Shown here piece after piece: positions 2,176-25,828 of a stretch of 26,984 nt of DNA. This stretch comes from a virus (Duplodnaviria > Caudoviricetes): positions 1 through 26,984 of the IMG/VR virus record IMGVR_UViG_3300020045_016803; one strand, given 5' to 3'. Numbering within the stretch: position 1 is the first letter of the stretch; each line of letters begins with the position of its first letter. Under the pieces are notes generated by a model that saw nothing but the letters and a program-made list of their open reading frames with translations, was not told where the DNA came from and made no database searches. Position numbers and translations under genes: made by a program.

Positions 2176-2907
2176 ATGAAGCAAATTTTGCCTTCAGATG
2201 CCGGACGCTCCAACTACCTGCGCGTAGCGCAGTCGGTGGCCGCCCAATTGGGCATAGACATCAACCTGTTCATCCAAAACTACAAGTTTTACGACGATGA
2301 ACTGAAATTGTACAAATCGCTGTCACCCAGCCAAAGCCAGTACAATTTCAACCCCGTGCGCGGCCTCGACAGCGACGTGCCCACATCCAACCTCATGGAC
2401 AAAAGCGACCTGTTTGCCGTCACCGGCGTGGGCCTCATTTTCACCCGCGCCACGTATGCCAGCGCCAGCCAGTCGTTGAGCCAATACGGCAACTACGAGG
2501 AATACACATTCCCGTATGCCGCCGTGTTTTCCGGCTCCAACGAGGCCACCGGCCTGCAAAACATTGTGCGCGGTGTGGTGCAGTTGGCGGTCAACTCTGA
2601 CCAACAATGGAGCATCCCAGCCGACCGCATGGTGTACAAAAATCAGTACATCAATGCGCAAGCGCAAACGATCACCTACGGCGCCGACACGGAAGCGGAG
2701 GGCATTTTGCCCCTCAACGCCATTGTCATCATGGACGGCGAAAACCAGAACACGCTGACGGTGAACCTTGCCCCAGGCGGCACGCTCACCAACATTGACG
2801 GCAACACCAACGCCACTACCCGCAACATTTTGGGCGTGAAACTTATCGGTTTCCGCGTGCGCAACGTGGCAAACGGTGGTTTCAATGCGGCAAACTGCCG
2901 GGTGTAA
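2176..2907 (+). CDS. Candidate major capsid protein (jelly-roll type, inferred)
   Basis: 243 aa, beta-strand-like pattern, no TM, strongly biased codons, followed by a terminator; the ORF is secure, the fold is inference. Confidence 0.55.
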   Translation: MKQILPSDAGRSNYLRVAQSVAAQLGIDINLFIQNYKFYDDELKLYKSLSPSQSQYNFNPVRGLDSDVPTSNLMDKSDLFAVTGVGLIFTRATYASASQSLSQYGNYEEYTFPYAAVFSGSNEATGLQNIVRGVVQLAVNSDQQWSIPADRMVYKNQYINAQAQTITYGADTEAEGILPLNAIVIMDGENQNTLTVNLAPGGTLTNIDGNTNATTRNILGVKLIGFRVRNVANGGFNAANCRV

Positions 2908-10505: not shown

Positions 10506-10539
10506 CGGCCTGCGGAACAAGTCCGTGGGCCGTTTTTTT
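10506..10539 (+). terminator. Terminator between convergent structural operon and integrase
   Basis: CGGCCTGCGGA-acaag-TCCGTGGGCCG-T7. Confidence 0.8.
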
Positions 10540-11728
10540 ATGGCTCCATTATCCGGGTTTTGATCTTTGCAAAACCATCGTTTACCAGGTCGGGCAGGTT
10601 GTACAGCATGGTGGTGCCCGGGTTGATATGCCCAGCCTGCTGCATTACCTGGGGCAATGGCAGCAGGCGCAACCAGTCAGTCACGCCGGTATCTTTGAAC
10701 GAGTAAGGGCTGATACCTTCCACATCGCGCAAGCGGCCAGAATCCAACAGCGCATCGAGGCAGCGCCGAAACCGTTTCCATGCCCACGTGCGCGGCCATG
10801 CCTTTTTGGGGTGCGGCGCTCCACCGTGGCCAAAAACATAGTAATTGGTTGGGATATCGGCAAACCGTTTGTCCTGCAGAATTTCCCGGACGTAGGCCGT
10901 CATGGTCGGGAATCGTTCCCGCTTGGTCTTGCTATGCTGGGCAGCCAGGCAAATAATGCCCTGCGACATATCAAAATCCCCTGCACGCAACCGGCGCAAC
11001 TCCGTACCCCGCAGTAGGCAATAGTATTCCAGCGTGACGAACAAAAAAAGGTAGTAGTCGTGCTCCCACAGCCATGCAGCTATGGCTGCCCGCTCGTCGG
11101 GCGTGCATTTGCGCCGAGACTTGCCCAAAACAGGTTTTTTGGTAATACCCCGAAACGGGTTTTCGGCCAACACTTCCCGCTTTACCAGTTCGTTGAAAAC
11201 CGTGCTTATTTTGGTTTTGTAGTTATTCCAGGTACGGTTTGAAAGATCGGCGCCCGACTTGTTTGGTCTGGTGGCTACATAATCAAGAAAATCGAGCGCG
11301 TGTCGCTTCGAAAATTCCGACACCGGCATGGCCCCTACCCTACCCTGTTCTGTCCATCGCAGGAACACGCCGCAAATGCTCCGGTAGTCCTTCCGGGTTT
11401 CTTCCCGATCCGTTTTCAATTTTATGGCCAACGCCATTTTCACGGCATCGCAAAGCGTTTGCGTGGCGGCTCGGGCTTCAATCTGTTCAGGCGATTGGTA
11501 CGGATACCCGGCAGGGAGCAAGGCGTTTATGCGCCCGATCAGCGCCGCAGCCTGCCGTTTTCGCTCCCTTAGTTCGTGGATTCTGTTTAGGTCGCCTGTT
11601 TCCCGGTGGCGCTTGCGCTGCCCGTCTTTCGGGTCAGTCTGGTAGTACACAATCTCCCAGCGGTCTTTTTTCATCGCCAACCGAGCCGGCAGGTACCCCA
11701 TGCGGGTGGACAATTTTTTTTTCTCCAT
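10538..11728 (-). CDS. int: Tyrosine recombinase / phage integrase
   Basis: LRGTEL (R), SKTK (K), YSFKDTG (variant of HxxR), QAGH, TMLY; SAM-like region (RTWNNY, ENPF); ATG 11728 preferred over TTG 11785. Confidence 0.93.
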   Translation of the reverse strand: MEKKKLSTRMGYLPARLAMKKDRWEIVYYQTDPKDGQRKRHRETGDLNRIHELRERKRQAAALIGRINALLPAGYPYQSPEQIEARAATQTLCDAVKMALAIKLKTDREETRKDYRSICGVFLRWTEQGRVGAMPVSEFSKRHALDFLDYVATRPNKSGADLSNRTWNNYKTKISTVFNELVKREVLAENPFRGITKKPVLGKSRRKCTPDERAAIAAWLWEHDYYLFLFVTLEYYCLLRGTELRRLRAGDFDMSQGIICLAAQHSKTKRERFPTMTAYVREILQDKRFADIPTNYYVFGHGGAPHPKKAWPRTWAWKRFRRCLDALLDSGRLRDVEGISPYSFKDTGVTDWLRLLPLPQVMQQAGHINPGTTMLYNLPDLVNDGFAKIKTRIMEP

Positions 11729-11751
11729 TGCTTTGGTGCCTTTTTTTGCCG

Positions 11752-11929
11752 TGACACGGTGGTGACACAGTTTTTTTGGCAGCAATGGTAAGTGATACGT
11801 TTACAGTGGTTTGTAAGGTTTTGTGAGCGGGATACGAGAACCCACCCCACCCCACAGACCACCCACGGAGATACCATAAACGCACTTTTACTACTGCCAA
11901 AAAACACAGCCCTGACACAGTTTTGACAC
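11752..11929. promoter_or_regulatory. attP region with arm-type repeats
   Basis: TGACAC pairs 11 bp apart on both sides of the core (11752/11763 and 11913/11924); TGACACAGTTTT occurs twice. Confidence 0.65.
11825..11839 (-). other. attP core = 3' end of a tRNA-Gly
   Basis: Minus strand TCTCGT-ATCCCGC-T-C fits the T-stem, acceptor strand and U discriminator of tRNA-Gly (E. coli Gly-GCC ends TCTCGTTTCCCGCTCCA); ~100 bp from the int start. Confidence 0.75.
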
Positions 11930-12411: not shown

Positions 12412-12648
12412 ATGCAAAATGAATATTTGAGTACATACGATAAAATTAAGGCCTACGACCTCATGGAGGCCTTAGAAATGCAAATTGAAGCATGGCGAGA
12501 GGAAGGGGTATCTGAAACGATGATCCGCAAAGCACTTGCTAAAAATGCGGACACCAGTTTGAGCAAACTTATACGCCGGGAGGCATTTAAGTTGCTTGAA
12601 AGCCATGAAACGAAGGCTGCCGAAAAACTGCTACAAATGCAGTCATAA
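12412..12648 (+). CDS. Small helical protein divergent from repressor (Cro-like by position)
   Basis: 78 aa; GVSETMIRKAL resembles a recognition helix. Confidence 0.65.
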   Translation: MQNEYLSTYDKIKAYDLMEALEMQIEAWREEGVSETMIRKALAKNADTSLSKLIRREAFKLLESHETKAAEKLLQMQS

Positions 12649-20278: not shown

Positions 20279-20346
20279 CAACAAACAGCCCGTAAAAGAA
20301 CTGTTTTCAAAAACAGAACATTAAAATTATTTTTTTTTGACAAAAC

Positions 20347-20636
20347 AAGTGTATAAGTGTAGTTTTAAGGTACTTTTAAAAGTAAATAATTAAATATCAA
20401 TACTTTATCTAACTACACTTTATACTACACTTTAAACAAAAGTAAAATGCAAAGTGTAGTACAAAGTGTAGCACATTTTGGCAGTTTGAGTTACAGGTGC
20501 CCAGGCAACTACACTTTGGCGTGCTACACTTTGAAACGAACTACACTTTGGTTGTTCAAAGTGTAGTTTCTCGCAAGGTTTTGCACGTCAATTGATTAAG
20601 ATGCCAAAAAAGGCAAAAACTACACTACTACACTTT
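20347..20636. repeat. Iteron-like repeat cluster, probable replication origin
   Basis: CTACACTT(T) forward at 20413, 20425, 20509, 20524, 20541, 20628 and reverse at 20355, 20452, 20464, 20559, plus partial copies; AT-rich, non-coding. Confidence 0.8.
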
Positions 20637-20773
20637 GTTTTGGAAAAATTTGAGTTTTGGAAAATTTCTGAAACACACTTTTCAACAAATTGGAAAAAAC
20701 CGCGTATATTTGTAACCTGTTCTCATAGGCTACCGCTGGAATAGCGGCTACAAGTGTTACTTACCGAAGCTAT

Positions 20774-23067: not shown

Positions 23068-23075
23068 TAAATTTG
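23068..23075 (+). promoter_or_regulatory. -7 promoter element giving a leaderless mRNA
   Basis: TAAATTTG-tggc-ATG(23080). Confidence 0.55.
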
Positions 23076-23438: not shown

Positions 23439-23479
23439 CAACAAACCCCGCCCGGATCACGTCCGAGCGGGGTTTGTTG
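23439..23479. terminator. Bidirectional terminator
   Basis: CAACAAACCCCGCCCGGA-tcacg-TCCGAGCGGGGTTTGTTG between convergent genes. Confidence 0.8.
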
Positions 23480-24004: not shown

Positions 24005-24142
24005 GACAACTTTCAGTAAATCGGAAAAAAGTTTCCGACTTTCATTTCTTGAATCACGATACGCCACGCGATTGGCTCCCACGGGTCTTTACTTACCTAA
24101 CCGGTTTGCTGAAGGTTGTCCCCCGTGGGTTATTTTATTTTC
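24005..24142 (+). ncRNA. Structured 5' leader of the cassette operon
   Basis: 24005-24024 pairs with 24101-24120 over 20 bp (3 G-U pairs); alternative stem 24078-24085/24122-24129 followed by a U-rich tract. Confidence 0.55.
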
Positions 24143-24660: not shown

Positions 24661-24721
24661 TAACTGAATGCGCCCACGACGGGCGCGACGCATAGCGCGG
24701 CTTTACGGGGGCGCGGCGTTA
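24661..24721. mobile_element. attC-like hairpin site 1
   Basis: TAAC...GTTA, 61 bp, GC-rich imperfect inverted repeat; near-identical to site 4. Confidence 0.75.
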
Positions 24722-24754
24722 TGCGGATTTTTTGCCCCAGAAACATTCGACAAA

Positions 24755-24886
24755 ATGAATACATACGCAGTAACAGGAACGTTTCACGGCTCGATTGTCT
24801 ATGCAAACTGTGAAGGCGATGCCCGCAGGGCATTTCACAAGAAGTACAACGGCGAATTAATTACCCATATTCACCGAATTTTTTAA
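24755..24886 (+). CDS. Cassette ORF (43 aa)
   Basis: Flanked by GTTATGCGG (24718) and CCGCGTAAC (24891). Confidence 0.6.
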   Translation: MNTYAVTGTFHGSIVYANCEGDARRAFHKKYNGELITHIHRIF

Positions 24887-24895
24887 TATCCCGCG

Positions 24896-24954
24896 TAACT
24901 GGTGCTTGTACGCCGCTCGCCGTTTAGGCGAAGGTGTACGGGCAAGCATGGTTA
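24896..24954. mobile_element. attC-like hairpin site 2
   Basis: 59 bp; TGCTTG/CAAGCA, TACGCC/GGTGTA, TCGCC/GGCGA stems. Confidence 0.75.
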
Positions 24955-24977
24955 TTCAAACCTTTAATTTTTTCTTT

Positions 24978-25160
24978 ATGCAAACAATGTTGATTTACCT
25001 AAAAAAAGATTTCCCGTGTGGTCGTGGAAAAATCAAGGCTGGAACTTCTTGCATTTGGCATGGAGCAAGAGACAAAGACGGGAAACGAATCGTTGGCCCA
25101 AAAGGGAAAAACGGGAAATTTTACCTAACACGTCACATTCCTGATTCTTATTTTGAATAA
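24978..25160 (+). CDS. Cassette ORF (60 aa, basic)
   Basis: Flanked by GTTATTCAAA (24951) and TTTGAATAAC (25152); stop codon lies in the TAAC. Confidence 0.65.
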   Translation: MQTMLIYLKKDFPCGRGKIKAGTSCIWHGARDKDGKRIVGPKGKNGKFYLTRHIPDSYFE

Positions 25161-25217
25161 CTGGAGCACTGCCGACGTAGCCGCGTTTAGTCGGATATGA
25201 CAGGTAGTGCGGGGTTA
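25158..25217. mobile_element. attC-like hairpin site 3
   Basis: 60 bp; GCACTGCC/GGTAGTGC, CGTA/TATG, CCG/CGG stems. Confidence 0.75.
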
Positions 25218-25230
25218 CACACACTTACCT

Positions 25231-25425
25231 ATGGAACTCACAAAAAAGGAAAAGCAAATAATTGCCGGGCTTAAATCTGGCGGTGTCCTGATTACTGGTA
25301 AATACCCTTCCGTTGCCTTTAAAGACGGCCGCCCTGACATCCATTTTTCGTTTGCAAAATTCTGCGATCTACAATACAAGGGAGTTTTGCGCGAATGGAA
25401 TGGCGATTTTGTTCTTTGTGTGTAA
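25231..25425 (+). CDS. Cassette ORF (64 aa, possibly winged-helix-like)
   Basis: Flanked by GTTACACACA (25214) and TGTGTGTAAC (25417); stop codon in the TAAC. Confidence 0.65.
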   Translation: MELTKKEKQIIAGLKSGGVLITGKYPSVAFKDGRPDIHFSFAKFCDLQYKGVLREWNGDFVLCV

Positions 25426-25483
25426 CTGAGTGCGCCCACGATGGGCGCGACGCATAGCGCGGCTGTACGGGGGCGCTGAGTTA
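25423..25483. mobile_element. attC-like hairpin site 4
   Basis: 61 bp; near-identical to site 1. Confidence 0.75.
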
Positions 25484-25516
25484 TGCGGATTTTTCATCCC
25501 GGTAAAATATAATGCC

Positions 25517-25729
25517 ATGATAGAATTAGGCAGAGCACGAATTACTGCAACGGACATACTCGCCTTTCCAAAAGGCACGATTGTGAATATAGGGGAGTTA
25601 GATGACGGTGACGAAACCGCAAGCGGTGCGGATGCGGAAGGCGGCGAATTGGTTGCATACGTCGCAGACGGTGATAGTAGTCACGATGTAGACGTAACCG
25701 AAGATGACTTTGTTTTTATCCCCGCATAA
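25517..25729 (+). CDS. Cassette ORF (70 aa, highly acidic)
   Basis: Flanked by GTTATGCGG (25480) and CCGCATAAC (25722); stop codon in the TAAC. Confidence 0.65.
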   Translation: MIELGRARITATDILAFPKGTIVNIGELDDGDETASGADAEGGELVAYVADGDSSHDVDVTEDDFVFIPA

Positions 25730-25785
25730 CTCCAAGCCCCACGAAGCCGCCGCGCACAGCGGCGGTTTTCGGGCGGCGGCAGTTA
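25727..25785. mobile_element. attC-like hairpin site 5 (terminal)
   Basis: 59 bp; AAGCCGCCGC/GCGGCGGTTT stem. Confidence 0.72.
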
Positions 25786-25792
25786 TCCGTAC

Positions 25793-25828
25793 AAAATGCC
25801 CGGCACGTACCCCGCGCCGGGCATTTTT
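25793..25828. terminator. Terminator closing the cassette operon
   Basis: AAAATGCCCGGC...GCCGGGCATTTTT. Confidence 0.8.

Follow-up and report, generated by a model that had tools for sequence, protein, structure and literature searches.

A probable integron-like array of four hairpin-plus-gene units, closed by a terminal hairpin, in a phage genome

Does the hairpin in a phage gene array travel with the gene that follows it or with the gene that precedes it, and on which strand does it fold? The question is raised by a virus record of 26,984 bp with a 121-nt terminal repeat, which was analysed whole and is called the window below. Its gene content (primase, lysin, repressor and phage-type integrase) is that of a phage, and the genome is complete. 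Five AAC…GTT hairpins of the form TAAC…GTTA are found at 24661-25785, within 1.1 kb. An initial annotation had noticed these five sites and had read them as a mirror image of an integron array; the observation was confirmed and the interpretation was supported in part. The evidence below points to four exchangeable units, each a hairpin plus a gene, closed by a fixed terminal hairpin, and we consider it probable that they form an integron-like array whose genes run opposite to its attC-type sites.

The best Atlas cluster of a 243-aa gene at 2176 is 60% bacterial, most often from Bacteroidota, and the phage host likely belongs to this group, which is named among the integron-bearing phyla in the available text of PMC8618304. 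The same gene (window 2176-2907) has no Pfam or PHROG match; its nearest named Atlas clusters are jelly-roll capsid families (0.77), a likeness that we treat as a lead only, and the phage may be tailless. Two features of the window outside the array can be added. The non-coding stretch 20300-20700 carries repeats of the motif ACTACACTTT, some direct and some inverted, which may mark a replication origin or an operator array, and an 18-bp inverted repeat between convergent genes at 23439-23479 is likely a two-way terminator. The motif TAnnTTTG, which we take to be the Bacteroidota promoter motif, is present on the plus strand at 23068 and 23993 and is not enriched (16 vs 11.7).

Five hairpin sites and the genes they travel with

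All five sites lie on the plus strand. Site 1 (24661..24721), found by pattern and by covariance model, is a cassette hairpin of the short (S) class and belongs to the gene on its right. If the cut is at AA|C, it opens unit 1 (24664..24898, 235 bp), which holds the site, a leader and a 43-aa ORF at 24755-24886; one contig from run X2 matches 24728-24900 with 8 differences. Unit 2 (24899..25160, 262 bp) consists of site 2 (24896..24954, S class), a hairpin type that also precedes other sequences, and a 60-aa ORF at 24978-25160, which uses the TAA of site 3 as its stop codon. Site 3 (25158..25217, S class), of a type that also precedes another ORF in locus L001, forms unit 3 (25161..25425, 265 bp) together with a 64-aa ORF at 25231-25425, for which no homologue was found except itself. 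Unit 4 (25426..25729, 304 bp) is a widely circulating cassette made of site 4 (25423..25483), an S-class hairpin of the site-1 type, followed by a 70-aa ORF at 25517-25729, here called ORF4; an additional two-codon ATG is present at 25512. Site 5 (25727..25785), a terminal (T class) hairpin, forms the resident terminus of the array. Built in part from the five sites, a covariance model found no sixth in the window, the next score being 10.9 against 52-57 bits, and an upstream unit starting near 24128 was considered and rejected, as there is no hairpin there. Beyond the GTT and AAC triplets, the two ends of units 1-4 are complementary at 5, 7, 7 and 6 of 7 bases; in the control, the two flanks of one site are complementary at only 2-4 of 7.

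The cassette proteins matched no Pfam or PHROG family, and the Atlas matches of ORF4 were all below 0.9. The 170-aa gene to the right of the array retrieved no loci when used as a query, named phages and plasmids gave no real match to the array, and a search with the exact site-1/4 pattern gave none either.

The near-identity of sites 1 and 4 was confirmed, with 5 differences in 61 positions; the other pairs of sites are 60-77% alike (63% for sites 2 and 5). Both sites are followed by GTTATGCGGATTTTT and, 37 nt beyond the G, by an ATG (24718 to 24755 and 25480 to 25517), and units 1 and 4 end alike, as first described. A simple local duplication was ruled out as the source of this likeness, since the hairpin type occurs in 11 other sequence contexts, with nine gene families in all, and the bodies of units 1 and 4 are only 55% alignable. 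The 37-nt spacing taken alone is weak evidence because it is modal for all units with an ATGCG flank (10 of 33 at 37 nt and 26 of 33 at 34-40 nt).

The proposal that the mobile unit is a site plus its downstream gene was borne out by homologous ORFs. Eleven gene pairs share at least 89% identity. In 10 of them the two upstream hairpins are at least 86% alike, in 2 the downstream hairpins are, and no pair keeps the downstream hairpin alone; the background identity between hairpins is 58 +/- 12%, with a 95th percentile of 81%. In one close pair (91%) the upstream hairpins are unlike. Of 37 more distantly related pairs, 7 have upstream hairpins whose likeness exceeds the 95th percentile, none keeps the downstream hairpin, and 30 keep neither. 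These 30 pairs and the one close pair suggest that hairpins are swapped or converted over longer times by another route, and the link between gene and hairpin, as judged from these pairs, loosens with time.

The ORF4 family gives the same picture. A homologue in L001 (90% identity) retains the site-4 hairpin among other neighbours on both sides, and six units of the family have upstream hairpin identities of 91, 92, 83, 83, 57 and 64%, with downstream values of 49-69%. In contigs of 8 runs, chosen because they contain part of this stretch, unit 4 (25423-25731) recurs with 1 difference in run X1 and 0 in X9 behind unlike preceding DNA, and it is followed by unlike hairpins or DNA in six runs (X1, X3, X8, X9, X13 and X19). 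ORF4 continues into a T-type arm in three records. Contigs X17 and X19, which also contain unit 4, come from RNA libraries and cannot show transcription. No circle junction was found in the contigs of the 8 runs, where assembly into contigs drops rare forms.

The wider family was sampled from viral loci obtained by pattern scans and from at least 130 metagenome loci. A home-made detector, which makes some false calls and misses, recovered at least 224 distinct hairpins that either lie in arrays or belong to the T type; 148 are short (S), 19 long and 57 terminal (T). Before counting, L119-L125 were left out together with seven locus-strand sets that we took to be false or reversed, and loci from related phages are not independent. 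Among the matches listed, 118 of 122 linked units have their longest ORF on the folding strand, with the site upstream of it, the stop codon falls inside TAAC in 61 of 122, and unit ends are complementary at a mean of 5.46 of 7 bases over 136 units, against 3.60 +/- 0.10 when shuffled. The site at L059 2185-2238 is fully symmetric, has complementary flanks and matches the site-2 hairpin in reverse; it is possibly the product of an inversion or of wrong-strand use. Relative G053 (L250) has site-1-type hairpins at 12554 and 14037 without the right-hand GTT, in a part of the array far from T, which we read as decayed or fixed cassettes. At L054 1835-1959 and L156 5335-5459, a 46-bp unit without an ORF stands before an inner T that closes one array, and a second array comes next.

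The exchange point and the terminal site

The crossover had been placed in the left TAA|C, at the stop codon of the previous gene. Natural empty and filled alleles, together with flank covariation, confine exchange to the left AAC; a cut at AA|C within it is suggested by analogy with IntI (PMC5027507). Compared with L075, L097 has 442 bp extra, corresponding to two hairpin-plus-gene units between the shared left flank and the terminal hairpin, with flanks 97-99% identical and the right flank shared behind the terminal hairpin. L093 has one unit (A) and then T, and L097 has A, B and T. The same empty/filled pattern is repeated in L090 vs L110 and L102. The empty alleles L075 (2298) and L090 (3620) have one common T variant, unlike the variant of their filled relatives in two right-flank lineages, and the two may not be independent. 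The base after AAC varies with the hairpin that follows, and the base before it depends on how the preceding unit starts (C with G in 5 of 6), so that exchange would take place inside the triplet. As judged by comparison of these alleles, units come and go whole, the exchange point is in the left AAC, and site 5 stays.

Site 5 had been taken for one more cassette site, a view that did not hold. It belongs to a distinct terminal class found at 18 of 26 array ends and at 0 of 94 inner positions; both figures were counted in loci fetched without the T pattern, where the class was first seen ending arrays, over linked chains with at least 1 kb visible behind the end, T or T-like sites being scored. 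In the other 8 of the 26 chains the last site is not a T, which in at least one case is due to a missed link. Among the matches listed, a linked unit follows to the right of 0 of 65 T sites vs 127 of 236 other sites, and the T class precedes 32 unrelated right flanks. Its stem covaries, e.g., 0.87 paired vs 0.43 shuffled. The idea that T is the hairpin of a founding cassette was rejected, as the 1.5 kb behind each of the 43 listed T flanks contained no complementary end (best run 4/7).

At this locus, G053, a complete syntenic relative, has a bare T of the site-5 type, and a second T ends an array elsewhere in that genome. G003 and G034 have one site each, of T type, and in run X3 a close relative retains site 5 together with both flanks around a different middle. 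Terminal-only placement and the bare T of relatives suggest that T occupies the attI position, and site 5 is likely a docking site. New units would enter at T, judging from L093/L097 and from a weak gradient of the kind that would mark T as the entry point (p = 0.04 at 7 nt and 0.11 at 12 nt). Behind site 5, a terminator-like stem followed by a T run (25793..25828, plus strand) was called by eye, is missing from the list made by a scan and is retained in G053. Relatives in runs X1 and X3 have 278 extra bases directly behind site 5, at window 25789-25794.

Folding strand and relation to known cassette systems

The hairpins of all classes share a common register on the coding strand: AAC, a spacer one base longer than the opposite arm and a stem of about 9 bp, with, on the GTT side, one extra base 13-14 nt before GTT and then a G-T pair whose T lies 16 nt before GTT. 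In 75 aligned sites, 88.9% of cells are paired vs 68.2% when shuffled and 31-38% when slid, with two-sided changes in 12 of 17 pairs; such covariation cannot separate single-stranded DNA from RNA. The AAC/GTT R box is invariant in 75 of 75 sites, which had been selected on these triplets. The commonest flanks after GTT are ATGCG and AGCCG. With attC numbering, checked by eye against the aadA7 oligonucleotide in the available supplement of Qi et al. 2023, there is a single bulge at position 20/21 and none at 16, so that, unlike in attC, no bulged G16 is present. T23, conserved in 100% of S and 97% of T sites, faces G or T instead of being bulged, and the spacers are shorter, the stem beginning after 4/3 unpaired bases. 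Neither the RYYYAAC/GTTRRRY consensus and 5-6 nt spacers of attC nor its two or three extrahelical bases (G16, T23/24) were found in these sites.

In attC, according to the accessible part of PMC5027507, the bottom strand, when folded, is the more stable one by 2.1 kcal/mol on average; it is purine-rich, contains more G-T pairs and has its extra bases opposite the cut AAC. Among the matches listed, it is the coding strand of the S class that is more stable, G-rich and richer in G-T pairs (139 of 148, skew +0.20); the T class is without strand bias (30 of 57). The G-T wobbles noted on the top strand of the window hold overall, with 9 G-T vs 1 A-C over the five sites in the common register and, among the G-T pairs, three at site 2 and two at site 3, but site 5 has only one. 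Folding energies with DNA parameters likewise favour the top strand at sites 1-4, by 3.0-5.9 kcal/mol, but the bottom strand at site 5 (-17.5 top vs -19.2 bottom); top-strand z-scores range from -2.0 to -3.7. The coding strand of S sites has the features of the folded attC bottom strand, and we infer that it is the folded substrate, as had been proposed.

The mirror-image description survives in one respect, as the gene is inverted relative to its site. The chemistry does not appear mirrored: on a minus-strand reading, each site lies at the 3' end of its cassette, exchange is at G|TT, and the cut arm is opposite the extra base. That the coding strand resembles an attC bottom strand in these respects suggests ordinary integron logic with the genes reversed.

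Other traits are shared with integron attC sites as described in the available text of PMC5027507, namely an imperfect hairpin with an AAC/GTT pair, exchange in AAC, an extra base opposite the cut arm, one strand rich in G and G-T pairs with lower folding energy, complementary cassette ends and a length of 51-85 nt. Unlike in integron cassettes, where the gene lies upstream of attC and on the top strand, the gene here is on the folding strand and the site precedes it. The array head is a covarying hairpin with a terminator-like stem and not a double-stranded attI, the genes face this head instead of being read away from Pc, and there is no intI. Thus the array is real, actively exchanged and integron-like, with a mechanism proposed from natural alleles, and it differs from integrons and attC in intI, attI, G16 and gene direction.

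Five attC-type sites on one strand, less than 4 kb apart and with no IntI nearby, also make the locus a CALIN (two or more such sites). CALINs of this kind have been reported in phages (PMC4889954, PMC9892861, in the parts available); unlike them, the arrays described here are polarised and actively exchanged. The closest published description is that of Qi et al. 2023 (PMC9892861), who found CALINs in 17 phages and ascribed the divergent site directions in Polaribacter phage P12002L to mosaicism; the portion of their paper available to us mentions neither a systematic reversal nor a class of terminal sites. The TAAC…GTTA layout on the coding strand is shared by P12002L, and the bottom strand assigned to its attC1 is the coding strand. 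In L249 (P12002L, 29200-32250) we observed methyltransferase genes bounded by complementary GTTA…TAAC ends on the coding strand, in an array whose closing terminal sequence is built differently and had been tested as attC2 by Qi et al. (PMC9892861, available part). Our covariance model does not detect the AT-rich P12002L sites.

Two other departures from the textbook integron are comparable in part. The attG/SALIN system (Loot et al., bioRxiv 10.1101/2022.09.11.507474) also takes up cassettes away from intI, but attG, in the text available, is double-stranded and unstructured, whereas T is a conserved covarying hairpin with no cassette end behind it. In the Treponema integrons (PMC4889954, available part) the orientation is likewise unusual, but there it is intI that is inverted relative to attC, and here it is the cassette genes, with no integrase. 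In the literature searched, with thin coverage of subscription journals, no description of reversed cassettes or of a terminal hairpin class in phages was found.

The alternative that fares best, although we regard it as unlikely, is that the array is a canonical CALIN, in which a standard IntI of the host moves attC cassettes that are ordinary apart from their reversed ORFs, and site 5 is just the attC left by the first cassette. The invariant AAC/GTT, the one-base spacer asymmetry, the conserved T23 and the strand skew all match attC; IntI1 tolerates the loss of single extrahelical bases (PMC5027507), and 5 of 6 phage sites recombined with IntI1 (PMC9892861), both from the portions available. 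This account has difficulty with the missing bulged G16 and with spacers of 4/3 instead of 5-6, as well as with a reversal that is near-universal (118/122) and not occasional. T moreover forms a class of its own that is strictly terminal and lacks a complementary unit end behind it, and P12002L_attC1, the one published site of such polarity, failed with IntI1 (PMC9892861, available part).

Very unlikely, in our judgement, is a second alternative in which the hairpins are RNA leader or processing structures and exchange proceeds by homologous or illegitimate recombination, with no site-specific enzyme. Coding-strand RNA folds are strong (-24 to -34 kcal/mol), hairpins are replaced over time, and many array phages show no recombinase, all of which would fit. 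However, junctions fall in the same triplet though the hairpins are only ~58% alike, the mutual complementarity of unit ends would be relevant only in a circle or synapse, and no Rfam family reaches its cut-off for the hairpins.

Candidate enzymes, proposed mechanism and meaning

The only tyrosine recombinase found in the genome is a phage-type integrase of 415 aa (10538..11785, minus strand), encoded beside the repressor gene. It scores 14 bits against the TIGR02249 cut-off of 265, hence it is not IntI, and five other recombinases from array-bearing records score 16-48 bits against the same cut-off. PF00589 matched in 4 of 54 array-bearing records, most of them fragments, and all four matches are phage-type and far below the IntI cut-off. 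A motif and a home-made profile, applied to the viral and metagenome loci, found no recombinase near arrays except phage integrases; the Pfam comparison took in 69 of 151 long ORFs from the larger metagenome loci. As for the IntI domain itself, Cury 2016 (PMC4889954) lists 21 integrases beside attC sites without it, and Smyshlyaev 2021 (PMC8138268) states that the IntI insertion is not fully conserved in an integron-like subgroup, in the text available of each.

That the phage moves the units with its own 415-aa integrase deserves still less credence than the RNA-structure account. No other recombinase was found in the genome, two further complete array phages have related integrases, and at L148 4698-6133 the gene of a phage integrase converges on the array and ends on a T-like terminal site. 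Its domain layout is nevertheless that of a phage integrase, its neighbour is a repressor gene and it lies 13 kb from the array, and G003, G022 and G034, which are at least 90% complete and carry sites, gave no PF00589 match. This protein is probably not the cassette enzyme.

Least likely of all is that a reverse transcriptase makes the units and inserts them by way of an RNA intermediate, which would suit their transcript-like build, from a 5' hairpin and fixed-length leader to a stop codon (inside TAAC in 61/122), but there is no RVT_1 (PF00078) match in the genome, and precise empty/filled alleles and whole-unit transfer fit DNA recombination. The RNA-templated route that the initial annotation had left open thus finds no support here, but may still have a part in cassette creation. 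The genome also gave no PF01797 match for the Y1 transposase of REP/RAYT (HUH) systems.

Under the reading that we favour, exchangeable hairpin-plus-gene units closed by a fixed terminal hairpin, the coding strand of a site would fold when single-stranded, and a tyrosine recombinase would cut at AA|C, on the arm that faces the extra base, in the way IntI cuts the bottom strand of attC. A unit excised between successive AAC triplets would form a circle, in which the complementary ends of the unit would rebuild the outer stem, and integration would occur mainly at the AAC of site 5, the attI position on the minus-strand reading. The enzyme would probably be supplied in trans by the Bacteroidota host, and transcription of the genes would start at phage promoters on the left and run towards the terminator that follows site 5.

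Two rules that textbooks give for cassette arrays, that the gene precedes its site and that the entry point is unstructured DNA, would be broken here. Use of the coding strand as the folding strand would favour folding if the genes run with the replication fork, a point suggested by the available text of PMC5371416. Phage accessory genes, DNA methyltransferases among them, would move between unrelated phages as precise modules and not by chance mosaicism. One hairpin-plus-leader template stands before nine unrelated genes, with a leader of 36-39 nt, and this reused template and the natural empty and filled alleles are ready substrates for an enzyme search and for work on cassette genesis. More tentatively, and with the odds somewhat against it, the arrays may represent a phage platform parallel to the integron, in which phages of Bacteroidota have planted T as a docking hairpin at many unrelated places, a non-IntI host recombinase does the work, and a few hairpin-plus-leader templates become attached in front of the phages' own genes. 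If this platform reading is true, the question of how cassettes are created would become directly testable through the shared hairpin-leader template.
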